This document shows positions 18,367 through 29,802 of a stretch of 32,387 bases of DNA, one piece after another. The notes under the pieces are model-generated. The model was given only the letters and a program-made list of their open reading frames with translations. It did not search any database and was not told the DNA's origin. This DNA comes from Bacteroidota bacterium. Its GTDB lineage: Bacteria > Bacteroidota > Ignavibacteria > T3Sed10-11. The stretch is taken from positions 1 to 32,387 of the forward strand of contig SKXH01000255.1 of the NCBI GenBank assembly GCA_007128495.1. The letters run 5' to 3'. Positions within the stretch are counted from its first letter, which is position 1; the number at the start of each line of letters is the position of its first letter. The translations under genes and the position numbers were made by a program.

Positions 18367-18792
18367 TTACAATCGATGTAATGACGAATAGTTAATTCGT
18401 AGCGCATCCGCCTCCCGAAGCTGTTGTTGGATATCCGTTACGATCCCCATTTCTGAATGTCTGTCTATTCGCATTGAAACAATCAAATTAGGGATCTCGA
18501 CTCGTTTCTGGTACATAATCGAGCGAATATCATCAATGTTAATGATATTATCGTCAATCTGTACCCGTCCGTCCCGGCCAACCCAGATATAGGAAATGAG
18601 CCGTTTGTTTTCAATACGTTCGATCATATACGCTTCGGGGAGCGTATACTCTACCTGAACATCGAACTCACGGAGTACTGTTGTCAACATAAAGAAAATC
18701 AACAGCATAAAAATAATATCCGGGAGCGATGCTGTCGGAATTTCCTGCTTCGTTGTGGCCTGTTTTTTTTTGAATTTCGTGTCTTTAGCCAT
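18367..18792 (-). CDS. exbD: ExbD/TolR-family protein (second copy)
   Basis: 141 aa. N-terminal basic stretch, then the TM segment LPDIIFMLLIFFMLTT and a periplasmic domain typical of ExbD. Confidence 0.85.
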   Translation of the reverse strand: MAKDTKFKKKQATTKQEIPTASLPDIIFMLLIFFMLTTVLREFDVQVEYTLPEAYMIERIENKRLISYIWVGRDGRVQIDDNIINIDDIRSIMYQKRVEIPNLIVSMRIDRHSEMGIVTDIQQQLREADALRINYSSLHRL

Positions 18793-18840
18793 TGAACCAC
18801 GTCCCTTATATCATCAAAAAATGATTACTACGGTGCTCTC

Positions 18841-19338
18841 TTATTCCGGCTCAGCAAGAGATATTCGTTGAGGAATTTCCCGCCTTATTTGCTGCATTTG
18901 CTCTTGTGTCACATCGTCAAGTCGCACACCGAAATTTTGCCGGGCATATGCTTCACGGAGTTCGTTGTAAGCCATCTTTAACTGATCGATTGTGTCGATG
19001 TAGACATTGTAGGGCGTTCGCCTGTCGGTTTTCACCGATACGATCAGCTCAGGGTTCTCACGAATTTTATCAGCAATTGTTCCCGATATTTGCGGGACAC
19101 TGATAATATCTCCGTCAAGCAACACTTCACCGGCTGCATTGACGAGTATGTTTGCAATATTTTCTTCCTCTACTTCGATTTCTTCGGCGTCTTCAACCGG
19201 AGGCGGTAACACAAGACCGATACCGGTATCGACATCAATCGTTGTAACTAGGAGGAAGAAGATAAGCAACAAGAAAGCAATGTCTGCCATTCCTGCAAGC
19301 GGAATGGTAGCACCTTCTTTTTTCTTACGCTTTAACAT
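18841..19338 (-). CDS. exbD: ExbD/TolR-family protein (first copy)
   Basis: 165 aa. TM segment ADIAFLLLIFFLLVTT. GGGAG RBS. Confidence 0.85.
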   Translation of the reverse strand: MLKRKKKEGATIPLAGMADIAFLLLIFFLLVTTIDVDTGIGLVLPPPVEDAEEIEVEEENIANILVNAAGEVLLDGDIISVPQISGTIADKIRENPELIVSVKTDRRTPYNVYIDTIDQLKMAYNELREAYARQNFGVRLDDVTQEQMQQIRREIPQRISLAEPE

Positions 19339-19356
19339 GAGGGGTTCTCCCTTTCG

Positions 19357-20112
19357 TTACTGTTTTTTCTCCGAGCCCTTATCTTTATCCTGATCTTTAC
19401 TCTCTTTAGCAGGAGTTTCGGCGCCTGCCGGGGCAATTTTCTTGCCTTGCTTTAATAGAATCAGAGAGTCGATTAATTCTATTGAGCTTTCTTCCATTTC
19501 GATAACGAGTTTATCGATCCTGGAAACAAAATAGTTGTAGAAAACCTGTAATATAACCGCGACGACAAGACCGAACAATGTCGTAAGCAATGCAACGGAA
19601 ATACCGCCGGCGACAATTTCAGGTGAAATGTTCCGTGCTTCACGAATAGCATCGAAAGCCGATATCATACCCTGAACCGTTCCGGTAAATCCGATCATAG
19701 GTGATATAGCGATAAACGTTGATATCCAGATAAGATTTTTTTCCAAAAATGCCATTTCAATGCCGCCGTAGCTGATAATAGCTTTTTCAGCTGCTTCAAT
19801 TCCTTCATCGGCACGAAGAAGACCTGCCTGAAATACACTTGCAACGGAACCACGATTTTTACTGCAAACTTCCAGAGCAGCGTCTACACCACCTTCATCA
19901 AGGGCTTTTTTCACATTGACGAGAAATTTTCTGGTATTCACCGTAGCTTTGCTGAGCGTCCATATACGCTCAAGTGAAAAGGCAAGGCCTAAAATTAAAC
20001 AGCCGAGAATAACGTGCATAAAGTGGCCGCCTTCAACATATTTTTCTTGCAACCAATTTAGTGCCCCAACATCGGCTTGAAGAAGGAAGGTGAAAATGCC
20101 AAATTGATCCAT
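19357..20112 (-). CDS. exbB: MotA/TolQ/ExbB proton-channel protein
   Basis: 251 aa with three TM helices. Conserved C-terminal channel region GGISVALLTTLFGLVVAVILQVFYNYF. GGAGG RBS. Confidence 0.9.
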   Translation of the reverse strand: MDQFGIFTFLLQADVGALNWLQEKYVEGGHFMHVILGCLILGLAFSLERIWTLSKATVNTRKFLVNVKKALDEGGVDAALEVCSKNRGSVASVFQAGLLRADEGIEAAEKAIISYGGIEMAFLEKNLIWISTFIAISPMIGFTGTVQGMISAFDAIREARNISPEIVAGGISVALLTTLFGLVVAVILQVFYNYFVSRIDKLVIEMEESSIELIDSLILLKQGKKIAPAGAETPAKESKDQDKDKGSEKKQ

Positions 20113-21012: not shown

Positions 21013-21048
21013 AAAAAAATCCCCAGGGTAGGCAATGCCTACCCTGGG
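21013..21048 (-). terminator. Rho-independent terminator closing the TonB-receptor module
   Basis: Perfect 12-bp stem CCCAGGGTAGGC / GCCTACCCTGGG (21022-21033 / 21037-21048) with a 3-nt loop, followed on the minus strand by a T7 run. It begins 67 nt after the lipoprotein stop codon. Confidence 0.85.
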
Positions 21049-21114
21049 AAATAATACCTTCTATTTGGAAGAATGTAATCTATCCAATAAAATTAATAAA
21101 ACCTGCAATCCAGA

Positions 21115-21588
21115 TTAATCGTGATCCTCAACTTCTATCGCCAATGCGGGAGTCGCCCAATCGACGTGATCTCCATGCCATAATTGAAATAGTATCTCGG
21201 TTTCCCCAACGCTTATCCCCTCGATATCAACATGGTCAATGTGATTGTCGATTTCTATTATTCCTTCAGGTGCTCCATCTGCAAGTTGGGCACGCACTTC
21301 GAATTCGTCACCCAACTGTATTTCATTATTATCTTCGTCGAGAAATCGTATATCAAGCTCGATTTCTTCACCTACGTGTAGATGGGGTAAAGCACCATCC
21401 CAATGCATACCGGCACCTGTTCCGTGTGTATATGCAAGAAGCTCTTCAGTTTCACGATCATATACTTCCGCTGCTACCGGTTCACCGTGTTGATCGTCGT
21501 GAGGGTCGGTGGAACGATCACAACCGGTAAACAATATAATAGCCGGTAAGATGAGGAGTAATCCGAGTGCAAGTATTTTTGAGTTCAT
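21115..21588 (-). CDS. Acidic His-rich lipoprotein of unknown function
   Basis: 157 aa. GGGAGG RBS and lipobox ILFTGC. The mature part has 11 His (PHDDQH, THGTGAGMH, PHLH, NHIDH, WHGDH, C-terminal EDHD) and is very D/E-rich. No family recognised. Confidence 0.7.
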   Translation of the reverse strand: MNSKILALGLLLILPAIILFTGCDRSTDPHDDQHGEPVAAEVYDRETEELLAYTHGTGAGMHWDGALPHLHVGEEIELDIRFLDEDNNEIQLGDEFEVRAQLADGAPEGIIEIDNHIDHVDIEGISVGETEILFQLWHGDHVDWATPALAIEVEDHD

Positions 21589-21642
21589 TACATACCTCCC
21601 TTTTTATTCAAAGAGTTTTTGTTTGTTAACTTTAAAAATTAA

Positions 21643-23997
21643 TTAAAATAGAATTTGATACGACAACTGAATATTTCGTCCCGGCTGCGGTGCGACATCT
21701 TTCACACGTGAAAGGTGATCGCGCCAGACATTATCGGTCGCGTTGTCAACATTCAGGGTTATCGTATGAAGAATATTAAATTGTGTCCATCTATATCCTA
21801 TGCCGGCCCGCAGTAAATTATAAGATGGTGTTGGTGATTGCGGCTTAATGGTTTCTCCCTCATTTATCGGATCGGGTATCGGTGATGGTACACGGTTCTG
21901 TGAATCCGCTCCGGTCCATCCAATTGATGCAAAAAGATGCTTTCCTTCATACCTGAAATTTACATTGCCGTTCAAGGGCGGAATGAACGGCAGCGGATCG
22001 TTGTCTGCTGTCCGGGTCGCGCGTACATAACTGATGGTACCGTCCAGCACGAATTCACCCCCGAGATGTATTTCAATCTGACCTTCAGTACCATAAAACA
22101 CGGCATTATCACTGCGTGCCTGGAAAACAGGATACCTTCTTAACCGGGGATCAATTTCTCCGGTCGGTTCATAGTAGATATAGTTTGAAACATAATTGTA
22201 GAAGAGATTAGCGTCGAATTTTAAGCTCCGCATTTCAGAGCGGATGAAAAGGTCTATACCCGTCCCCACTTCTGCATCCAATTCAGGATTACCGATATCA
22301 TAGGAGAAATCAGCAAGGTGTGGTCCGTCAGAGTATAACTCTTCAATTGCCGGATTTCTAAATGCACGCGCTACGCTCAGTCCTATTTTCCATCCCGGCC
22401 TTATATCATACAGCAGTGCAATTGAACCTGAGAATTCACCAAAAGTACGGCTTGTTACCGGGATTAACCGGTCACCCGATTGTATCGGATCGGTACGGTA
22501 TGGTTCAATTGAAGACCAATCATATCGGAGTCCCACCTGAAATCTGAGTACTCTCCATCCAAACTCTTCGTAAACGAAAGCCGATAATACTGTTTCGGTC
22601 GCCGATCTTGTACCGGTGAATCCTCTCACCGATAAAAGATCGCGATAACGAGCAGAGATGCCCGCCGCTCCTTCGAGAGGTAATATCCCGTTTTCATGTA
22701 TGTGTCGGGCAATTAAACTACCGCTTATAGTAAGCTGATCAAATTCCGCTCCGATGATAGGACGGCCTGCGCCTGTTTCCCCCTCTATTTCTTTGTGAAT
22801 GTAATGAGTCACGTGTCCGTCAAACTCAATATCGCTGAACGGACCGATACCTTCATAGTGGAGTGCGCGAAACCTACCTACACGACGCATGAATTCTGCA
22901 TCCACACCGCCGGCGTGAGCACCGGGAATTTGTATATCGTTAAATTCTCCTGGCACACCATACCGCATCTCATATTGTCTGAACGATGCTCCTGCATATC
23001 CCCAGTCGGTTATCCAGCTGGCACCGGCACTCGCATTATAGCCATCAAGATCGGTCGATGGAAACGTTCCTTCGGGCGTTCTGATATCACCGGCTGTCCT
23101 TCCGCTGATCTCACCACGTAGGGCAAACGAGCCGGCCGGTACGGTGATCATACCTCCTCCGCTTGCGCCGTCATTATATGATTCACCGCGAAGCATTAAA
23201 GTGCCGGATATCCGTTCGGGTATATCACGCGGGATTTCCTCCCTAATAATATTTATTACACCGCCAAGAGCATTACTTCCATAAAGCAAACCTGCCGGTC
23301 CCCGGACTACTTCTACTCTTTCAGTTGTAACAGGTTCTATTGCAACAGCGTGGTCTGCTGAGGTAGTGGATAGATCTCCCGTGCGCTGGCCGTCTTCAAG
23401 TACGAGCACCCGGTCACCTCCCATACCACGAATAACTGGTTGCGTGGCAGCGGCACCGAATGATTGCTGCGAAATACCCGGTAAATGCACCAGTGAAGCC
23501 GGTAACGTTGTTTGCATTTTTTGCTGGTATTGACGTCCACCGAGAACACTCGTCGGTTGATAGGTCTCTGAAACACCACGTTCACGGCCGGTACCGGTAA
23601 CGACTACAGATTCCGATATCTCGAAAACCGAAGGTACCAGGTCAACTGCTATTTGCACGGTATCGTCAGGGGTTACTTCTACTTCCTTTTCGACCGGTGT
23701 ATACCCGATATGCTGAATTGTAACGGTATATTTGCGTACCGGCATGTTGTCGAATTGAAACGTACCATCTTCACGGGAGATCCGGTATCGCCCCGTATCT
23801 TTTAGCCGGATATTAGCAAAAAGAATCGGTTCACCGGTCTCGACATCACGGATAATTCCATGAATGGCCCCGTAATCCCGCTGAAGGTATGGTGGTGAAG
23901 TATAACCATTTTCTCCTCCATAAACGGCAACGGTTATAAAAACAACGAGAGAAAGCAATATGAATATATGATTTCTCATATTGTGTTTGAACCTCAT
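21643..23997 (-). CDS. TonB-dependent outer-membrane receptor with N-terminal CarboxypepD_reg-like domain
   Basis: 784 aa. Signal peptide, then a beta-sandwich N-domain (IHGIIRDVETGEPILFANIRL...YTVTIQHIGYTP). Plug region (ESVVVTGTG...PVIRGMGGDRVLVLEDG) and a long barrel ending in ...LSYQILF. An alternative ATG at 23979 is possible. Confidence 0.9.
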   Translation of the reverse strand: MRFKHNMRNHIFILLSLVVFITVAVYGGENGYTSPPYLQRDYGAIHGIIRDVETGEPILFANIRLKDTGRYRISREDGTFQFDNMPVRKYTVTIQHIGYTPVEKEVEVTPDDTVQIAVDLVPSVFEISESVVVTGTGRERGVSETYQPTSVLGGRQYQQKMQTTLPASLVHLPGISQQSFGAAATQPVIRGMGGDRVLVLEDGQRTGDLSTTSADHAVAIEPVTTERVEVVRGPAGLLYGSNALGGVINIIREEIPRDIPERISGTLMLRGESYNDGASGGGMITVPAGSFALRGEISGRTAGDIRTPEGTFPSTDLDGYNASAGASWITDWGYAGASFRQYEMRYGVPGEFNDIQIPGAHAGGVDAEFMRRVGRFRALHYEGIGPFSDIEFDGHVTHYIHKEIEGETGAGRPIIGAEFDQLTISGSLIARHIHENGILPLEGAAGISARYRDLLSVRGFTGTRSATETVLSAFVYEEFGWRVLRFQVGLRYDWSSIEPYRTDPIQSGDRLIPVTSRTFGEFSGSIALLYDIRPGWKIGLSVARAFRNPAIEELYSDGPHLADFSYDIGNPELDAEVGTGIDLFIRSEMRSLKFDANLFYNYVSNYIYYEPTGEIDPRLRRYPVFQARSDNAVFYGTEGQIEIHLGGEFVLDGTISYVRATRTADNDPLPFIPPLNGNVNFRYEGKHLFASIGWTGADSQNRVPSPIPDPINEGETIKPQSPTPSYNLLRAGIGYRWTQFNILHTITLNVDNATDNVWRDHLSRVKDVAPQPGRNIQLSYQILF

Positions 23998-24078
23998 TTC
24001 AGTATGTATAAAATTTATTGAACCTGTACCGATATATCAGGCCGGTTCATATATTAGGAATAGTTTTTCGGATAAAAT

Positions 24079-24420
24079 TCAGGCAAGGAAAGGTGGTGAA
24101 CGGGGTTCGAAAAGCAGCAGGTAATCTTCACTACGATATGATATGGTATTCTCCGGAGTTACCTCATCAAGAACATAAACCTTCGTTATTATTATTTGCT
24201 CACCCTCAAAAATCGAGGATGTTGTAATACGTGAGCATTTTTGACAATATTGATTATTGGCAAGGTCGGGGTGATTTGCATGGTTACTGCAATGATGACT
24301 ATTGAGATATACAGTTGGATCATTGCTGAAATTATACAGCGCTTCATCGTGGTGATGAAATGCCCCCCCCATGCTCATAACCAGCAACAATGCAAGCAGG
24401 TATGTTGAACCTCTTTGCAT
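24079..24420 (-). CDS. Membrane-anchored/secreted His- and Cys-rich mini-protein
   Basis: 113 aa from ATG 24420 (the track ORF uses TTG 24450). Hydrophobic N-terminus STYLLALLLVMSMGGA, then HHHDE, SHHCSNHANH and YCQKC, with a C-terminal RSPPFLA. Weak RBS. Lies 81 nt upstream of the receptor gene. Confidence 0.55.
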   Translation of the reverse strand: MQRGSTYLLALLLVMSMGGAFHHHDEALYNFSNDPTVYLNSHHCSNHANHPDLANNQYCQKCSRITTSSIFEGEQIIITKVYVLDEVTPENTISYRSEDYLLLFEPRSPPFLA

Positions 24421-24499
24421 ATTTCCGTATGTATTAAATAATTTAAACAAGAAAATAGAAATTAATTAAATTACAATCGTCAGTTTTAATATAGTAAAC

Positions 24500-24530
24500 G
24501 GTATACGGAACTATGTTAGTTCCGTATACC
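24500..24530. repeat. Perfect 14-bp inverted repeat (hairpin) between the HMA gene and the His/Cys gene
   Basis: GGTATACGGAACTA (24500-24513), tgt loop, TAGTTCCGTATACC (24517-24530). The T-rich tract (TTAATTTTTT) follows on the + strand; on the - strand only GTTTACTATATT follows. Confidence 0.6.
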
Positions 24531-24538
24531 TTAATTTT

Positions 24539-24892
24539 TTATTTGCAGCAATCCGGCAGTTGTTCGTATGCCGCTTCGTCACGGTGTGTTTCGTTAGCGG
24601 TATAACCGGCTCTGGCTATTGCTTTCTCAATATCTTCGAGTGTTGTATAATCAGGATTAAAGCTCACTGTTGCAACTCTTTGGTCGAAGTCTATTCGCAT
24701 ACCTTCAACACCTTCAACCCCGGCAGCGGCTTGCTGGACATTAGCGACACACATTTGACATTGAACTCCTTCAAGTGTTATTGTCTCGGTATGTTGAGCT
24801 AAAGCAGCAGCTTCGTCGGATTTTTCCTCTGCTCCGCACCCTATGAGCAGGAACATACCAATAATCACCGGAATGACAGCTAATTTCTTCAT
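24539..24892 (-). CDS. Heavy-metal-associated (HMA) domain lipoprotein
   Basis: 117 aa. GGAGA RBS and lipobox FLLIGC. Ferredoxin-like HMA pattern with the metal-binding GVQCQMC motif and ...IEKAIARAGY. An extra C-terminal Cys pair (LPDCCK). Confidence 0.8.
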   Translation of the reverse strand: MKKLAVIPVIIGMFLLIGCGAEEKSDEAAALAQHTETITLEGVQCQMCVANVQQAAAGVEGVEGMRIDFDQRVATVSFNPDYTTLEDIEKAIARAGYTANETHRDEAAYEQLPDCCK

Positions 24893-25199
24893 AAATACAG
24901 TCTCCTATCACTTTAAAATGGTTAAAAAAATAATATACAATTTTTTAAACTGAAAATAAAGACAATAGAGTCGAATATTAAAAAACATCAGTACTCTTAT
25001 CCGCGTTCCAGGTAATTTTTTATGAGTGCATTTTTAATAATACCTCTGTTTTGAAAACGTATACAACAGACGGAATTTATAATTTCACAGCCGCGACCTC
25101 GCCTGTTTAGTGTTAAGAACGTTTGCCACATAGAGAGTGTTTTACTATATTTAAACATAACTACACCAAAAACCCCGGGTAAATATAGGAGTTATAAAA

Positions 25200-25751
25200 A
25201 TGAACGGACGAGTAATTAACGCAGCCGTTGTGATTTTTCTTCTTTTATCACCGTTAGCTGTTGCAGAAGAGATGAATGATGAACTCACCATAGGTGCAAA
25301 AGCCCCCGATTTCAACCTCCCCTATGCAACGAAGGATGAAATAGTTTGGGATGGATTACAATTATCAGATATTACCGGAGAATCGTTTATCGTACTTGCT
25401 TTCTATCCGGCAAACTGGAGCGGCGGGTGCACCGAGCAGTTATGTGCATACCGTGACAATTTCTCTGCTCTCCAGGATCTCGATGCCACCATTCTCGGTA
25501 TCAGCGGGGATTATGTATTTTCTCATCATGAGTGGGCGAAGCAGGAAAACTTTCCCTTTAAACTATTAAGCGATCATTTTCATAATGTGGGGAAATTATA
25601 TAACAGCTATAATGAAGAACGCGGTTTTAACAAACGAACTATATTTGTGGTCGATAAAGAAGGCAAGATTGCATATATTAATATGGAATATAGTGTTGCC
25701 GACGACAGGGATTTCATAGCATTAAAAGATGCATTGCGAAGTCTTCAGTAA
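25200..25751 (+). CDS. Exported Bcp/PrxQ-type peroxiredoxin
   Basis: 183 aa. GGAG RBS and signal peptide (AAVVIFLLLSPLAVAEE). Active site FYPANWSGGCTEQLCAYRD (CxxxxC). Confidence 0.85.
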   Translation: MNGRVINAAVVIFLLLSPLAVAEEMNDELTIGAKAPDFNLPYATKDEIVWDGLQLSDITGESFIVLAFYPANWSGGCTEQLCAYRDNFSALQDLDATILGISGDYVFSHHEWAKQENFPFKLLSDHFHNVGKLYNSYNEERGFNKRTIFVVDKEGKIAYINMEYSVADDRDFIALKDALRSLQ

Positions 25752-25837
25752 CCATTGTTGAAATTATTTAATATTTTAGTGTATATTGTATAAACCAAAT
25801 CAGTAAAACAACATCAATTTATTGAGGTTTTTTTGGA

Positions 25838-26896
25838 ATGAAACAAATCGCGCTCTGGTCATTATTTGTCATTATATCATTCGGTGTACTAACAACCACA
25901 ACTTCTACAGACCCTGTTGATTCCCCCCTCCCGTTTGAAGGTGAACAGCATTTGCAAAACATACGGCAATTAACGTTCGGGGGAACAAACGCAGAGGCAT
26001 ACTTCTCATTCGGTCAGGATCAATTGGTTTTTCAATCGACACGCGACGAGTTTGAATGCGATCAAATTTATACGATGGACCTGGACGGTTCCAATGTCGA
26101 GCTTGTGAGTACCGGAAAAGGACGCACTACGTGTGCTTATTTTCTTCCGGGCGATAGCTTGATATTATATTCATCGACACACGCTGCTTCCGATGATTGT
26201 CCACCGCCTGTTGACCGCTCTCTCGGTTATGTTTGGAAACTATACGATGAGTTCGATATTTTTCTGGCGCGGTTTGACGGTACCATTGAAAAGACCCTAA
26301 CAAGTAGTCCGATGTACGATGCCGAAGCTACCGTATCACCAACCGGCGATCGTATCATTTTCACCTCACTCCGTGACGGCGATCCAGCTTTATATACAAT
26401 GAACCTCGACGGCAGCGATCTCCGCAAACTCACCGATAGAAAGGGATATGAAGGCGGAGCATTTTATTCACTTGACGGGGAGCAGATTGTTTATCGTGCA
26501 AACTACCCCGAGACAGAAGAAGAAATCGCGGATTACAACCGGTTGATGGAAGACCGGATGCTTCGTCCGATGCGACTTGAAGTATATGTTATGGACGCTG
26601 ACGGTTCCAATGTTCGTCAGGTAACGGATCTGGGTGCTGCGAGCTTTGCCCCCTACTTTCATCCTGATGGTGAGCGTATCATCTTTTCTTCAAATTACGG
26701 CGATCCGGAAGGGAGAATATTTAATCTTTACATGATAAATACCGACGGAACTAATTTGAAACAAATAACTTACTCCAATTCATTCGACGGATTTCCGGTA
26801 TTCTCACATGACGGAAAAACGTTAGTTTGGGGTTCGGGTAGAAATGCACAAGCACCTCGTGAAGTTAACGTATTTATTGCAGATTGGGTTGAATAG
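25838..26896 (+). CDS. TolB-like PD40 beta-propeller protein (exported)
   Basis: 352 aa with an N-terminal signal. Four PD40-type repeats are visible: MDLDGSNVELVS, MNLDGSDLRKLT, MDADGSNVRQVT and INTDGTNLKQIT. Confidence 0.8.
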   Translation: MKQIALWSLFVIISFGVLTTTTSTDPVDSPLPFEGEQHLQNIRQLTFGGTNAEAYFSFGQDQLVFQSTRDEFECDQIYTMDLDGSNVELVSTGKGRTTCAYFLPGDSLILYSSTHAASDDCPPPVDRSLGYVWKLYDEFDIFLARFDGTIEKTLTSSPMYDAEATVSPTGDRIIFTSLRDGDPALYTMNLDGSDLRKLTDRKGYEGGAFYSLDGEQIVYRANYPETEEEIADYNRLMEDRMLRPMRLEVYVMDADGSNVRQVTDLGAASFAPYFHPDGERIIFSSNYGDPEGRIFNLYMINTDGTNLKQITYSNSFDGFPVFSHDGKTLVWGSGRNAQAPREVNVFIADWVE

Positions 26897-26917
26897 ATCA
26901 GTGAAGGAGCTATAACT

Positions 26918-28750
26918 ATGAATTATTTAAAAATCATCCCGGTTTTTATTTTTGTTGCAATCGTTTCGGTACTCCTGTTACAGAGCGATGAAACCGAAAT
27001 TCAACGTAGCGAAACGATAACAAAAGATGAATTATCACATCACGTTCATTATCTTGCATCGGATGAACTTGAAGGAAGACGTGCCGGCACACAGGGAGCA
27101 TATCAAGCCGCACAATATATTGCCGGAGAGTTTATCTCGTATGGATTACTTCCCTCCCCCGACGCTGAGTCCGTTGGAGAAACAGAAGATTATCTGCAAT
27201 CATTCGAATTTTCATCCGGTGTCGAATATGGCGAGGATAACACATTGACGGTGTCGGTGAATGGTGAGAAAATTTCATTTACAATAGATCAAGATTTTAA
27301 AACGCTGCCGTTTTCATCAAGTGCCTCTGTTTCGGGTGAATTGGTCTTTGCCGGTTTCGGTATCTCGGCAGCGAGCGATGATTACGACGATTATGAAAAT
27401 ATATCACTCGATGGCAAGATAGCGCTGATATTTCAGGGTTCTCCGGATATAGAAGACCCGCACGGCATACTGAATCAATATGCTACACCGAGGAATAAAA
27501 CATTTGCTGCCCGCGAGGCGGGTGCCGAAGGATTAATTATCATAACCCAGCCCACCGCTGGTGAAGAGGCACTTATGAGATTGCGGGATGACCGAAATCC
27601 CGCCCTGTCAGGATTGCCGGTTGTAAATATCACACCAAATGTTGCAGCAAAATTGCTCAAAGGATCAGATTACAATGTGGATGATTTGTACAATAAACTT
27701 ATTGAAACTCGCACCCCTAACTCCTTCATTATGAGTAGAGTAACGGCAGATATTCAAACCGATGTCTACACTGTATCTTCTACCGACAACAATGTGATTG
27801 GCTTTCTTCCCGGCAATCATCCTGATAAGAAAGATGAAGTGCTCGTTATCGGTGCTCATTACGATCATCTTGGCTGGGGCGGCCAGGGTTCGATGGCGCC
27901 GAACGAACATGCAATCCATAACGGCGCCGATGACAATGCATCCGGTACAGCCGGTATGCTCGAGCTTGCACAAAAATTTGCCGCAAACCGGGGAGAAATA
28001 GACCGGAGCATACTATTTATTGCGTTCGGCGCTGAAGAACTTGGTTTGATAGGTTCACAGTATTATGTTGAGAATCCATACATCCCGAATGAACAAACTG
28101 CTGCTATGATCAATCTCGATATGATCGGTCGTTTACAGAACGATGAGTTGACGATATTCGGATTCGGTACTTCGCCAATCTGGGATGACTTAATAGAGTC
28201 CTCCACTTATTATGACGACTTTGCTATCCGCACAAATCCCGATGGTTTAGGTCCGAGCGATCATGCATCATTTTATCGAAATGACGTCCCGGTGCTGTTT
28301 TTCCATACCGGTCTCCACGGCGATTATCACAGGCCTTCTGATACTGCGGATAAGATAAATTACGAGGGGATGGAACGAATAGTTACGTATGTATACGACA
28401 TTGCCCGCACAATAACTACCTATGAAGAACAGATAGCATTTACAAGAGCGGATTCACCCCGGCCGCAAGGCGGGATGGGTAATATCAAAGTGTATGTAGG
28501 AACTATGCCGGATTATGTGGGAGAATCCGGCGGGATGAAGGTTACTGAAGTGCGCAACGATTCCCCGGCAGAAAAGGCAGGTATCGAATCGGGAGATGTT
28601 ATTATTAAGTTCGGTGATAAAACTATTGAAAATGTTTATGATTATACGTATGCCTTGAGTGACTTTGAGCCGGGTGATGTTGTTGAGGTGGTAATAAAGC
28701 GAGACGATACCGAGATGATGCTTGAGGTAGAATTGGGTTCCCGCAGGTAA
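26918..28750 (+). CDS. M28-family metallopeptidase with PA insert and C-terminal PDZ domain
   Basis: 610 aa. AAGGAG RBS and a signal anchor. M28 zinc-ligand blocks HYDHLGWGG, GADDNASGTAGMLELA, AFGAEELGLIGS, NLDMIG and PSDHASF. C-terminal PDZ (GMKVTEVRNDSPAEKAGIESGDVIIKFGDK). Confidence 0.85.
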   Translation: MNYLKIIPVFIFVAIVSVLLLQSDETEIQRSETITKDELSHHVHYLASDELEGRRAGTQGAYQAAQYIAGEFISYGLLPSPDAESVGETEDYLQSFEFSSGVEYGEDNTLTVSVNGEKISFTIDQDFKTLPFSSSASVSGELVFAGFGISAASDDYDDYENISLDGKIALIFQGSPDIEDPHGILNQYATPRNKTFAAREAGAEGLIIITQPTAGEEALMRLRDDRNPALSGLPVVNITPNVAAKLLKGSDYNVDDLYNKLIETRTPNSFIMSRVTADIQTDVYTVSSTDNNVIGFLPGNHPDKKDEVLVIGAHYDHLGWGGQGSMAPNEHAIHNGADDNASGTAGMLELAQKFAANRGEIDRSILFIAFGAEELGLIGSQYYVENPYIPNEQTAAMINLDMIGRLQNDELTIFGFGTSPIWDDLIESSTYYDDFAIRTNPDGLGPSDHASFYRNDVPVLFFHTGLHGDYHRPSDTADKINYEGMERIVTYVYDIARTITTYEEQIAFTRADSPRPQGGMGNIKVYVGTMPDYVGESGGMKVTEVRNDSPAEKAGIESGDVIIKFGDKTIENVYDYTYALSDFEPGDVVEVVIKRDDTEMMLEVELGSRR

Positions 28751-28755
28751 AATTT

Positions 28756-29247
28756 TTAAACCATTTTCCGCATAACTTCGCGGAGTTCGTCTTTGGTCAG
28801 GAAGCGTTGCAGCATAGGGAAAAGAATATGGTTTTCTTTGTGAATATGGTTAACCATTATCTGAACAATGGTGCGGGCTATCAATAAAAATTGTTGTATC
28901 GCTTCCTGATCATTTTTATTTTTTGTGATGGCGTGTGCAGCATCCTGGAGGGTTTCAAAATGCCGGGCTAAGTGACGGTGGTCGTCTTTCAGCGATCTTG
29001 TTGGACCATCGACGTACCGTTCGACAACCGGAAACAGCGCTTCTTCCTCCCTTTTATTATGTACATCAACCTCCTCTTTTATGAAGTCCATCGATTGGTC
29101 GAGTGTTTTTAACAGCTCGTCGTCTACTCCCTTTTCTTTGATAGTTGCTGCGATCTTGTTGAGCGTACGAAGATGCCGGAGAACCTCTTCGTGCTCCTGG
29201 ATAAACATTGCAATCGGATCTATCTGGTGTATCGCTGGTTGTGCCAT
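28756..29247 (-). CDS. Hemerythrin-like (HHE cation-binding) domain protein
   Basis: 163 aa from ATG 29247. The track TTG start at 29316 runs through AT-rich promoter-like sequence. Paired His/Glu motifs FIQEHEEVLRHL, HNKREEEALFP, DDHRHL and HIHKENHILFP. Confidence 0.75.
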   Translation of the reverse strand: MAQPAIHQIDPIAMFIQEHEEVLRHLRTLNKIAATIKEKGVDDELLKTLDQSMDFIKEEVDVHNKREEEALFPVVERYVDGPTRSLKDDHRHLARHFETLQDAAHAITKNKNDQEAIQQFLLIARTIVQIMVNHIHKENHILFPMLQRFLTKDELREVMRKMV

Positions 29248-29312
29248 TGTTTTTGACCGGTTGTTAATTCCAGACTTATTATACTGAATATAATAAAAAT
29301 TTATGACAATTA

Positions 29313-29699
29313 TCAAATATAATCATCCATAGCAGCGCGAATTTCATCTTCATCCATACCAAAATAATGACCGAGTTCGTGAAATACGGTCGTAAGTACC
29401 TGGTAGCGCAGCTCATCCTTTGATTTGCATATTCTTTCAATATTTTGTTGAAATATTTGTATTTGATCGGGCATAACCGGGGTCATACCGTACCAGTACC
29501 CGCGTTCGGTCAGCGGAATTCCGGTATACAATCCGAGCAGTGATCTCCTCTCTGACGCTCCTGCCCGGTCAAGATCTTCATCGCCGGGTAGATCTGCTAC
29601 GATAATCTCAACATTATCCAATGCTTTTTGAAAATGTTGAGGAAGCATATGCAATGCATCTTCGACAAGCGCTTCAAATTCGTCTCGTGAAACTTTCAT
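29313..29699 (-). CDS. Minimal zincin-like metallopeptidase family protein (DUF1025/Zincin_1-like)
   Basis: 128 aa from ATG 29699 (GGGA RBS). The N-terminus FEALVEDALHMLPQHFQKALDNVEIIVADLP is typical of the family, and an HExxH site is present (FHELGHYFG). The track TTG start at 29756 would read through a terminator hairpin. Confidence 0.8.
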   Translation of the reverse strand: MKVSRDEFEALVEDALHMLPQHFQKALDNVEIIVADLPGDEDLDRAGASERRSLLGLYTGIPLTERGYWYGMTPVMPDQIQIFQQNIERICKSKDELRYQVLTTVFHELGHYFGMDEDEIRAAMDDYI

Positions 29700-29714
29700 A
29701 CTATTCCCTACCAT

Positions 29715-29742
29715 AGAAAAGACCCGCCAACAAAAAGGCGGG
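29715..29742 (-). terminator. Terminator-like hairpin abutting the zincin gene start
   Basis: The minus strand reads CCCGCC-TTTTTGTT-GGCGGG followed by TCTTTTCT. It ends about 15 nt before the zincin ATG and lies about 100 nt after the Yip1 stop codon. Confidence 0.6.
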
Positions 29743-29747
29743 AATTG

Positions 29748-29802
29748 TCTCCACAAATCTACACGAATTTATTAGTGGCGATTGGTAAAGATTTGTGGGA
29801 GA
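29748..29802. repeat. Imperfect 13/14-nt inverted repeat with a 28-nt loop
   Basis: TCTCCACAAATCT (29748-29760) pairs with AGATTTGTGGGAGA (29789-29802), with one bulged G. It lies in the Yip1-zincin intergenic region, directly upstream (in the minus sense) of the terminator hairpin. Confidence 0.55.

Follow-up and report, generated by a model that had tools for sequence, protein, structure and literature searches.

Which process, and which metal, is served by a compact set of four genes that joins a TonB-dependent receptor to three small proteins with histidine or cysteine motifs? The genes, referred to as g1 to g4, belong to a Bacteroidota bacterium and lie within an analysed stretch of 32,387 nucleotides, hereafter the window (Table 1). 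A preliminary description of this DNA had proposed an outer-membrane, TonB-dependent capture and relay module for copper, zinc or another soft metal. Our analysis supports such a metal module, with zinc likelier than copper. On balance, we regard the cluster as a TonB-dependent divalent-metal acquisition module, most likely for Zn(II), organized around a ZnuD-type outer-membrane receptor.

Table 1. Features of the cluster and its surroundings, in window positions.
Feature	Position	Strand	Basis
g1, HMA lipoprotein, 117 aa	24539..24892	-	Pfam HMA, 3.3e-11
g2, small His/Cys protein, 113 aa	24079..24420	-	ATG at 24420; orthologue alignments
g3, ZnuD-like TonB-dependent receptor, 784 aa	21643..23997	-	Pfam, NCBIfam and PDB matches
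g4, acidic His-rich lipoprotein, 157 aa	21115..21588	-	lipobox; AF2 model
Divergent intergenic region, 307 bp, between g1 and a peroxiredoxin gene	24893..25199	.	sequence read
Copy of 9-mer AAAAGTTCT, reading AAACGTTCT	25124..25116	-	within the 307-bp divergent region
Perfect 14-bp hairpin between g1 and g2	24500..24530	-	sequence read
Intrinsic terminator at the cluster end	21020..21050	-	14-pair stem with 9 G-C pairs, then TTTTTTT
exbB-exbD-exbD, past an SDR gene	18367..20112	-	Pfam MotA_ExbB, ExbD x2

The four genes, their motifs and the divergent region were found as originally described, and reading of the open reading frames placed all four on the minus strand, at the positions first assigned. 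The divergent region is presumed to be the promoter region; the 9-mer AAAAGTTCT occurs with at most one mismatch in nine of nine orthologous upstream regions, while no Zur box was definable in the upstream regions of orthologous loci or in the window. The terminator at the cluster end proved real, and Pfam confirmed the exbB-exbD-exbD genes beyond the SDR gene. The downstream order SDR, ExbB, ExbD, ExbD is kept in all related loci. These genes are a possible energiser of the g3 receptor; their linkage to the cluster is one of within-lineage synteny alone, and in locus L011 they are not adjacent to the receptor and g4 pair. The remainder of the window consists of housekeeping genes. Genes for a P-type ATPase, an RND pump, an ABC importer or a regulator, metal sensors and Zur included, are absent from the whole window, in agreement with the earlier view that this is not a resistance island. 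The lack of an inner-membrane importer, a Zur gene and a Zur box in the window counts against a zinc function.

The receptor g3 comprises an N-terminal CarbopepD_reg domain, a plug and a TonB barrel according to Pfam. It had been placed outside the known metal receptors, which does not hold. The top NCBIfam match was ZnuD (2.3e-59, 201.7 bits, far under the model cut-off of 950), as was the top PDB match (4rdr; 2.6e-37, 131.7 bits, compared with 74 bits for PhuR and 40 bits for OprC). Zinc in ZnuD of Neisseria meningitidis is bound by Asp99, His100, Glu340 and His499 (PMC4557270). Asp215-His216 and His560 of g3 align to Asp99-His100 in the plug and to His499 in loop 6, so that three of the four ligands are identical, and all three residues are invariant in eight orthologues, down to 48% identity. 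The Asp before the plug His is shared with ZnuD only, PhuR having Thr at this position. The low score relative to the ZnuD cut-off speaks against zinc, as do three features of the alignment: Glu340 is not alignable to g3, the His cluster found in loop 3 of ZnuD is not retained by g3 at the aligned positions, and the two clamp histidines of g3 are common to haem receptors. The two proteins have a haem-receptor-like scaffold in common; however, the similarity amounts to only about 130-200 bits, and g3 has the additional CarbopepD_reg domain. We know of no dedicated lipoprotein, HMA or small-protein partners of ZnuD, whereas the receptor type found in the window is always followed by g4.

The g4 domain represents a large family not described before and is the most novel part of the cluster. 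The window protein has a lipobox (FTGC), 11 His, and 37 acidic versus 5 basic residues, with the motifs H55..H62-W-D64, H116-x-x-H119-x-D121 and H138-x-x-H141. Its AF2 model was confident (pLDDT 91.8) and consisted of a single Ig-like β-sandwich domain, for which Foldseek returned generic Ig-like matches only. The domain had no sequence match in Pfam, NCBIfam or PDB, and in Pfam none, the histidine-triad family included, even at E<=10. The two orphan proteins of the preliminary description, g2 and g4, are metal-type proteins lacking characterised relatives, as proposed, but they are not singletons. The g4 family has at least 389 cluster representatives and is tied to ZnuA: a ZnuA domain is fused in 15 of 62 long members, a g4-family gene (P0091) is followed by a ZnuA gene, and in an archaeon of the genus Natronorubrum a free g4-type copy precedes a ZnuA gene that carries an inserted copy, with genes for an ABC ATPase and an ABC-3 permease next in line. 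The domain thus occurs with ZnuA in monoderm bacteria as well as in archaea.

Most family members carry HGDHWHG and HGDHVHI, whereas the window copy has HxxHxD. Streptococcal Pht proteins bind zinc through the HxxHxH motif and hand it to AdcAII (PMC3842936). PhtD/PhtA with AdcAII, and also ZinT with ZnuA, resemble the g4 family as extracytoplasmic zinc scavengers that feed uptake, the likeness lying in the HxxHxH motifs and in the many members fused or adjacent to ZnuA. They differ in that g4 is an Ig-like sandwich of ~120 residues and Pht units are short three-strand repeats, in the missing histidine-triad match and the HxxHxD variant, and in the partner, which here is an outer-membrane receptor and not an ABC binding protein. 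A fusion with the cobalt chelatase CbiK in one family member is a further point against zinc. The Pfam ZnuA family itself includes Mn and Fe binders too. Because of this and the CbiK fusion, the g4 domain may not be zinc-specific.

The first gene, g1, has a lipobox (LLIGC), the metal motif GVQCQMC with CQMC as its CxxC, and the C-terminus PDCCK; CQMC and the C-terminal LPDCC[KR] are invariant in orthologues. HMA CxxC domains are best known as Cu(I) and Hg(II) binders, and the NCBIfam models nearest to g1, all matched below cut-off, are CopZ, MerP and the UxxU metal-binding protein. Both points run counter to a zinc assignment. The hairpin between g1 and g2 counts against a joint module: because it is terminator-like, g1 may be transcribed apart from g2-g4. 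Its role might be that of a partial terminator, a processing site or an operator. It had been missing from the first feature list. Locus L005 has a hairpin of another sequence at the equivalent position, followed by the identical GTTTACTATAT.

The small protein g2 contains 7 His and 3 Cys and begins with a hydrophobic segment, either a signal peptide or an anchor. A TTG at 24450 would give 123 aa, yet every orthologue begins at the ATG. Orthologue alignments revealed the invariant motifs G..FH.H, H.C, HP, CxxC and a C-terminal PRSPP. There was no match to g2 in Pfam, NCBIfam or PDB, and its AF2 model was not confident (pLDDT 43.6). Small proteins that resemble g2 and end in R[GSA]PP adjoin g4-family genes or receptors in four loci (L014, L015, L099 and L102). 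In architecture and gene context, g2 resembles the NCBIfam family HYC_CC_PP (NF047658), for which no literature was found; hhalign gave 51-62% probability over the N-terminus only, and homology is not proven.

Relatives of g1 with the HMA-LPDCC arrangement adjoin HYC_CC_PP small proteins together with other TonB receptors or RND pumps, a combination that recurs in many Bacteroidota-like contigs; in L057 and L065, a TonB receptor carries the HMA-LPDCC domain as a fusion at its periplasmic N-terminus. These cassettes contain the same trio as the window, namely an anchored His/Cys PP protein, an HMA-LPDCC protein with the CxxC and AYxxLPDCC motifs of g1, and a receptor. However, g2 falls below the NF047658 model, with HHH and CxxC in place of HYC and CC, and the gene order differs in that the HMA gene comes first in the window cluster. 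Furthermore, the receptor of the cassettes is of another type, with an AACCNLSESF plug, and has no g4 partner.

These relatives bear on copper, which, like haem, is a weaker rival of zinc. Uptake of copper, or of Ni, Co or another soft or borderline metal, would make g1 and g2 copper chaperones and g4 a Cu(II) binder, with g3 importing ionic copper for cuproenzymes. We consider this unlikely, although it draws on the nearest models of g1, on the CbiK fusion and on the related HMA and HYC_CC_PP cassettes, which are very rich in Cys and neighbour RND pumps or receptors with a CC motif. Mature g2 would begin with F-H-H-H if its signal peptide were cut after GGA, and the third-position His would then provide an ATCUN-like Cu(II)/Ni(II) site; this His is not invariant, since P0014 has FHSH. 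The g4 domain, in turn, is repeatedly linked to ZnuA and znuABC. The receptor is likewise unlike the copper receptors OprC and NosA, to which the preliminary description had compared the cluster and with which it would share TonB-dependent transport of an ionic metal: its similarity to OprC is weak (about 1e-9 to 4e-10, 40-42 bits), TIGR01778 scores 69 bits against a cut-off of 472, and g3 contains no Cys and hence lacks the OprC-type copper site, CxxxM-HxM (PMC11213822). Because g3 matches ZnuD best, keeps ZnuD ligands and has no Cys, zinc is likelier than copper.

At least nine distinct loci, metagenomic or from MAGs, carry all four genes in an unchanged order, with identities as low as 34% for g2, 51% for g1 and 68% for g3; the most diverged g4 copies within the lineage score only 59-68 bits. 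This arrangement exceeds chance. Since a wider synteny is common to all of these loci, they represent one lineage, and the complete order is confined to it. The co-occurrence of the four families across genomes therefore holds for sub-modules, which recur independently, and not for the full order. The g4 domain follows orthologous receptors in L011, L013, L099 and L101, which include Gemmatimonadota and Bacteroidota-like contigs, and a more distant receptor (150 bits) in L102. In Gemmatimonadota, the pair lies amid unrelated genes, with dnaA and dnaN upstream and a response regulator downstream, and in L011 it stands alone. Pairing of a g2-like gene with g4 was found in further contigs. The HMA gene is absent from every receptor and g4 locus outside the window lineage. 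Rather than being a single, indivisible new system, the cluster combines two gene sets, each recurring elsewhere: a core set made up of a ZnuD-like receptor and g4, frequently joined by a small g2-like RxPP protein, and an added set, the HMA lipoprotein g1.

The four genes might also not form a functional unit at all, being neighbours kept by lineage-wide synteny, with g1 separately transcribed and unrelated to g2-g4. The flanking genes common to every four-gene locus, the hairpin and a conserved A/T-rich element between g1 and g2, and the missing HMA gene in the receptor and g4 loci outside the lineage are consistent with this. We find it improbable, as every adjacent pair recurs independently elsewhere (receptor with g4; g2-like protein with g4; HMA with small protein and receptor), HMA-receptor fusions exist, and the gene order is kept while g2 falls to 34% identity.

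Haem uptake, with g3 as a haem receptor and g4 as a hemophore-like, bis-His haem lipoprotein resembling HmuY with HmuR, appears more doubtful still. ZnuD itself is structurally related to haem receptors (PMC4557270). In addition, g3 matches the TonB-hemin subfamily (172.9 bits), PhuR and ShuA, and has FRAP/NPNL-like boxes (FRNP and NPEL) with a His between them as well as the plug His; Bacteroidota haem receptors with lipoprotein partners are known. However, ZnuD clearly outscores every haem receptor, the TonB-hemin score is under its cut-off of 316.85, and the Asp preceding the plug His is the ZnuD residue. Moreover, the g4 domain is fused to the metal-ion binder ZnuA and not to haem proteins, and g1 and g2 are ion-type Cys/His proteins. 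Least probable is periplasmic buffering or detoxification, in which g4, g1 and g2 would sequester excess metal beside a merely neighbouring receptor: acidic His-rich periplasmic proteins can serve as metal sponges and HMA and HYC_CC_PP pairs also stand beside RND efflux pumps (L050, L059, L064, L080, L081 and L083), but neither an efflux pump nor a P-type ATPase or metal sensor is encoded in the window, g4 is partnered by an importer-type protein, be it a TonB receptor or ZnuA, wherever its context is informative, and the receptor and g4 pair occurs alone in L011.

Returning to zinc acquisition, the gene content, motifs, ligand conservation, modelled g4 fold, ZnuA fusions and recurrent neighbourhoods come from the analysis itself; which metal is carried, where g4 sits, which way the ion moves and what g1 and g2 do are inferred. 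The g4 lipoprotein would bind metal through its two HxxHx(H/D) motifs and one HxxH and hand it to the receptor. As a surface lid, it would take the place of the loop 3 of Neisseria ZnuD, a His/Asp-rich loop whose histidines are missing at the aligned g3 positions. A buried site of the receptor, formed by Asp-His and His where the plug tip faces loop 6, would hold the ion until TonB-ExbBD pulls on the plug and the ion is freed into the periplasm. Periplasmic g1, with its CxxC and terminal CC, and g2 would then accept the ion for delivery to an importer of the inner membrane whose gene lies outside the cluster and the window. If this is correct, zinc or a comparable metal ion enters through a ZnuD-like receptor with the aid of a lipoprotein from a family that is elsewhere fused to ZnuA.

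In this zinc scheme, g4 is probably surface-exposed and acts as a 'lid' that captures metal, although it could be periplasmic instead. Non-SusD lids (BtuG, XusB, HmuY, DUF4625 and DUF4876; Price et al., bioRxiv 10.1101/2023.03.17.533168) resemble g4 in gene arrangement: the lipoprotein gene comes immediately after that of a non-SusC receptor on the same strand, and this adjacency is kept in different families. For DUF4625, a receptor lid role was proposed from cofitness and AlphaFold-Multimer in the same study, and L102 encodes a fusion of DUF4625 with the g4 domain. Unlike these lids, g4, a putative lid, is another, unnamed domain that is found also with ZnuA in monoderms and archaea. In L104, the mature part of g4 has been swapped as a cassette, with backgrounds that are 97% identical, a pattern that would favour surface exposure.

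An open reading frame check placed all four genes on the minus strand, where the preliminary description had put them, and reading of the sequence recovered both proposed boundaries of the cluster, a 307-bp divergent region and a strong terminator at 21050..21020. The genes for an SDR protein, ExbB and two ExbD proteins are likewise present downstream. As had been stated earlier, the window encodes no P-type ATPase, RND pump, ABC importer or regulator; its remainder consists of housekeeping genes, and no importer gene for the inner-membrane step of uptake occurs in it.

Location and features of the four genes of the cluster in the window
Gene	Coordinates	Strand	Features
g1, HMA lipoprotein	24892..24539	-	117 aa; lipobox LLIGC, one HMA domain, GVQCQMC, terminal PDCCK
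g2, small His/Cys protein	ATG at 24420	-	113 aa; start common to all orthologues; 7 His, 3 Cys
g3, TonB-dependent receptor	23997..21643	-	784 aa; CarbopepD_reg, Plug and barrel domains
g4, acidic lipoprotein	21588..21115	-	157 aa; 11 His

In addition to the features described before, the g1-g2 intergenic stretch contains a perfect 14-bp hairpin (24530..24500). In the related locus L005, another hairpin, unlike it in sequence, occupies the position equivalent to window 24500-24530, and GTTTACTATAT follows both hairpins. Because the hairpin separates the two genes, g1 may be transcribed or processed apart from g2-g4. Footprinting upstream of the cluster for a Zur box or another operator yielded the 9-mer AAAAGTTCT as its sole find (window copy 25116-25124, minus strand). 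It is present with at most one mismatch in 9/9 orthologous divergent intergenic regions (the window, L002, L005, L006, L008, L010 and L019-L021), 100-230 nt upstream of the HMA start, and may serve as a binding site for a regulator or belong to the peroxiredoxin promoter.

The receptor g3 matched the Pfam domains Plug (9.8e-21) and TonB_dep_Rec_b-barrel (3.9e-37) and thus has the plug and β-barrel architecture. Its top NCBIfam model was ZnuD, the TonB-dependent zinc receptor (NF038289, 2.3e-59, 201.7 bits). Because this score lies far under the model's cut-off of 950 bits, we class g3 as a ZnuD-like receptor rather than a ZnuD orthologue. Scores against the TonB-hemin subfamily TIGR01785 (172.9 bits, cut-off 316.85) and the copper receptor model TIGR01778 (69.1 bits, cut-off 472.45) also remained under their cut-offs. 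Among solved structures, ZnuD of Neisseria meningitidis (PDB 4rdr) was the best match at 2.6e-37, followed by PhuR at 6.8e-20 and OprC entries at about 4e-10 to 1e-9. An OprC-type copper site (CxxxM-HxM) was rejected, since the protein contains 0 Cys.

The buried high-affinity zinc site of ZnuD consists of Asp99, His100, Glu340 and His499 (PMC4557270). HMMER aligned the PDH and KH segments of ZnuD with SADH and GPH of g3, that is, Asp215-His216 and His560; matching these to ZnuD Asp99, His100 and His499 uses an inferred 14-residue offset between chain and paper numbering. None of the three g3 residues varies among 8 orthologues, whose identity falls to 48%. The ZnuD Glu340 stretch was left unaligned, and His241 and His243 of ZnuD loop 3 stand opposite non-His residues in g3, which carries invariant Y.H.E.E and PG.H motifs near this region. 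According to the ZnuD authors, the two clamp histidines are common to haem receptors, and ZnuD also has haem-receptor features of the FRAP/NPNL type (PMC4557270). Boxes of this type (FRNP...H...NPEL) are present in g3, which does not reach the haem receptor cut-off. At the plug position, PhuR has Thr-His, in contrast to Asp-His in g3.

At least 9 loci carry all four genes in the order of the window. All of them share their flanks, with peroxiredoxin, PD40 and M28 peptidase genes on one side and SDR, ExbB, ExbD and ExbD genes on the other, and because of these shared genes they count as one lineage; the recurrence across FCB genomes raised in the preliminary description was thus not observed. 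The window is nearly identical to the NCBI MAG contig PXBR01000214.1, and several relatives come from soda-lake sediment, judged by sample names. The organism probably comes from an alkaline soda lake, a setting in which metals are poorly soluble. Its lineage was not recovered from species-representative genomes, and the taxonomic placement draws on the MAG contig and the sample names.

Parts of the module (receptor + g4, g2-like + g4, and an HMA cassette) recur independently. In the Gemmatimonadota MAGs L011 and L013, a receptor 48-50% identical to g3 is directly followed by a g4-family protein; in L011 the pair is flanked by dnaA, dnaN and a phosphoribosyltransferase gene and, at its other end, by response regulator and transaldolase genes. 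The same pair is present in L099 and L101. Adjacency of the receptor and a g4-type lipoprotein on one strand is kept in the window lineage, L011, L013, L099, L101 and L102. The Bacteroidota-like loci L102 and L103 have a distant receptor (150 and 134 bits, respectively), one small gene, and a fusion of DUF4625 with the g4 domain; the order at L102 2745-6843, also seen in L103, is a g2-like gene, the receptor, a second g2-like gene and the fusion lipoprotein. DUF4625 has been proposed, from cofitness and AlphaFold-Multimer, as a lid, or lipoprotein partner, of non-SusC receptors (Price et al., bioRxiv 10.1101/2023.03.17.533168), so the fusion connects the g4 domain with a previously proposed family of receptor lids. 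The conserved core is the receptor with g4, frequently joined by a g2-like protein.

A word-indexed search with g4 returned just 7 close relatives, and a genome-collection scan with a narrower alignment gave 6 loci only. An exhaustive profile search recovered 389 cluster representatives at E ≤ 1e-3 (170 at E ≤ 1e-10), many with 2-5 tandem domain copies. No Pfam, NCBIfam or PDB sequence match was found for g4, nor any Pfam match at E ≤ 10 for six relatives. Structure prediction, suggested earlier for this protein, was carried out with AlphaFold2 on a 57-sequence alignment and gave a confident all-β model (pLDDT 91.8). Foldseek yielded no functional lead: the top 50 matches listed were generic Ig-like, Rib and S-layer domains with TM of about 0.4.

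Consensus motifs of the family are H-G-D-H-W-H-G, H-G-D-H-V-H-I and W-H-x-x-H, represented in the window by H55...H62-W-D64, H116-I-D-H119-V-D121 and H138-G-D-H141. Most relatives carry HGDHWHG and HGDHVHI, both true HxxHxH motifs; window g4 has HxxHxD at 116-121. Streptococcal Pht proteins, which pass zinc to AdcAII, bind the metal through HxxHxH (PMC3842936). The Pfam histidine-triad family was matched by none of the six g4 relatives at E ≤ 10, and g4 had no sequence match to solved Pht structures; because the relatives match no Pfam family, Pht included, the likeness would be functional rather than a matter of family membership.

Fusion to ZnuA, the zinc-binding protein of the znuABC importer, is the decisive lead on the domain. 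A ZnuA domain is present in 15 of 62 longer family members. In Natronorubrum a free g4 copy is followed by a ZnuA with an inserted copy, an ABC ATPase and an ABC-3 permease, and on another contig a single-domain family member precedes ZnuA. Being repeatedly fused to ZnuA, the g4 domain is directly testable as a new zinc-binding module. Other fusions among the 62 long members were with CbiK, a cobalt chelatase (1), T2SS-T3SS_pil_N (4) and PD40/DPPIV_N (1), and one member had a Por_Secre_tail (T9SS) signal. The CbiK fusion calls for caution on strict zinc specificity, and the domain is used in several extracytoplasmic contexts, perhaps not for zinc alone. At L001 8001-12903, the gene for a two-domain homologue (P0003) adjoins that for PEP carboxylase; next come genes for a methyltransferase, a 172-aa protein and a TonB receptor that is no relative of g3, a looser association than at the other loci.

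The g4 lipoprotein is rather more probably a capture device on the cell surface than a periplasmic component. Such placement is suggested by its position downstream of the receptor, as in other partner lipoproteins of the FCB group, by the DUF4625 fusion, by the conserved stretch after the lipobox and by exchange of the mature domain as a cassette. The stretch, CDRS[TS]DP, is conserved in the window lineage and several distant family members, with a partial match in L013. The exchange was seen in L104, whose sequence matches the window at 97.3% identity up to and including the receptor gene and the initial 77 nt of g4, and at 97.4% again just beyond the terminator. Between these segments (window 21020-21511, L104 1770-2248), the mature g4 domain shows no detected DNA similarity and only 45% protein identity. 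Breakpoints lie just after the lipobox (CDR) and just beyond the g4 terminator, which is included in the swap, and the replacing allele is the subtype of L006, L008 and L010. Such swapping of cassettes is characteristic of exposed lipoproteins that partner receptors.

Sequence searches with g2 returned 9 clusters only, all in window-lineage synteny, and its AlphaFold2 model had a pLDDT of 43.6 (9-sequence alignment). Proteins of the same layout have a hydrophobic helix at the N-terminus, Gly, a His-His motif and a Cys pair, and carry R-[GSA]-P-P within a few residues of the stop. Their genes immediately precede g4 genes in L014 and L015; in L099 one lies upstream of the receptor gene, and L102 has one on each side of its receptor gene. 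In a joint alignment of g2 and these look-alikes, Arg107, Pro109 and Pro110 never vary, and Gly18 and His23 are almost invariant. Assignment of g2 to Pfam DUF6769 or DUF2321 was rejected (E of about 0.03, in 1/5 family members); true HYC_CC_PP proteins, small proteins of NCBIfam NF047658, also lack a DUF6769 match.

In size, N-terminal helix, N-terminal sequence (SMGGA-FHHH in g2, S.GA..H.HYC in the family) and terminal PP (RSPP in g2), g2 resembles HYC_CC_PP proteins. Their neighbourhood of an HMA protein with CxxC and a C-terminal LPDCC (HMA-LPDCC) and a TonB receptor, exemplified by L056, L066, L067, L073 and L082, is matched by g1-g2-g3. However, the motifs HYC and CC are replaced in g2 by HHH/HHC and CxxC. 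The NF047658 model, with a cut-off of 28 bits and scores of 41-46 bits for true members, gave no match at E ≤ 10 for g2, P0011 or P0015, and the hhalign match, with 51-62% probability, was confined to the N-terminal 25-33 columns. Since the family model was not reached and the profile-profile likeness is N-terminal only, homology is regarded as unproven.

The HMA domain of g1 (PF00403) scored 3.3e-11 and 43.8 bits against a gathering cut-off of 24.8, and its CxxC (CQMC) is invariant. Against the NCBIfam CopZ, MerP and UxxU equivalogs g1 reached 41-47 bits, under cut-offs of 62-95; it additionally has a lipobox and the LPDCC tail. A metagenome scan with the HMA alignment found 80 loci, none of which, outside the window lineage, adjoins a ZnuD-like receptor, g2 or g4. 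In at least 24 loci, an HMA-LPDCC protein is encoded close to, usually just downstream of, a model-passing HYC_CC_PP protein (41-46 bits), and these loci also hold a TonB receptor of another type (plug motif AACCNLSESF; L056, L066, L067, L073, L082) or an RND efflux pump (L050, L059, L064, L080, L081, L083). The pair may be a direction-neutral periplasmic metal-handling cassette. The HMA lipoprotein of the window is a lineage-specific addition, drawn from this cassette, which is widespread in Bacteroidota. At L057 5989-8553 and L065 5974-8481, single proteins consist of a CarbopepD_reg-Plug-barrel receptor (plug AACCNLSESF) whose N-terminus is joined to an HMA domain that has both CxxC and LPDCC, and an HYC_CC_PP gene precedes each. 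The N-terminus of TonB receptors is periplasmic.

The cluster is best read as a putative ZnuD-type metal uptake module with accessory proteins. Zinc is, on balance, the probable substrate, because the ligand set of g3 is ZnuD-like, the receptor has no soft ligands and the g4 domain is repeatedly associated with ZnuA. At the cell surface g4 would capture zinc for the receptor, and g1 and g2 would act as acceptors in the periplasm, where g1 is placed because of the HMA-receptor fusions. Copper or another metal, favoured by HMA chemistry and a possible ATCUN-like N-terminus of g2, is an unlikely substrate for a Cys-free receptor whose partner domain is fused to ZnuA. It is improbable that the four genes do not form one functional unit. 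Haem uptake is less probable still: g3 belongs to the haem-receptor clade, but its partner proteins are of the ion type. Metal buffering or detoxification is the least probable function.

A broader and more novel proposal is offered tentatively. The g4 protein would represent a widespread, previously undescribed Ig-like domain that carries a double histidine triad and binds zinc outside the cytoplasm. It would serve as a general shuttle delivering zinc to ZnuA in archaea and monoderms and to ZnuD-type receptors in diderms, and its small R-x-P-P partner would be likewise undescribed; recruitment of the HMA lipoprotein here would complete an outer-membrane-to-periplasm relay.

TonB-dependent zinc uptake and receptor-partner lipoproteins are already known, and HYC_CC_PP and HMA have database names. 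The novelty lies in the large and unnamed g4 domain family with its ties to ZnuA, in the pairing of this domain with ZnuD-like receptors, in the small R-x-P-P partner and in the combination with an HMA lipoprotein. To our knowledge, outer-membrane capture of free zinc together with a periplasmic recipient is well described for a few pathogens only, in which ZnuD acts alone or steals zinc from host proteins, and we know of no complete outer-membrane-to-periplasm zinc relay for Neisseria ZnuD. The present cluster suggests dedicated partners for zinc in environmental bacteria, namely a His-rich Ig-like lipoprotein, a small R-x-P-P protein and an HMA lipoprotein. Literature searches found nothing specific on HYC_CC_PP or on HMA, TonB receptor and zinc in Bacteroidota, and no papers on metallochaperone coupling to TonB receptors in this phylum. 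The HMA-receptor fusions and HYC_CC_PP cassettes show a physical coupling of periplasmic metallochaperones to TonB receptors in many Bacteroidota.

On the divergent side of the cluster (window 25200-29756) are genes for a secreted peroxiredoxin, a β-propeller protein of the PD40 type and an M28 peptidase that also has PA and PDZ domains, as well as for a hemerythrin-domain protein and a Zincin_1 protein. Enzymes of the M28 and zincin types depend on zinc. This arrangement is kept throughout the lineage.
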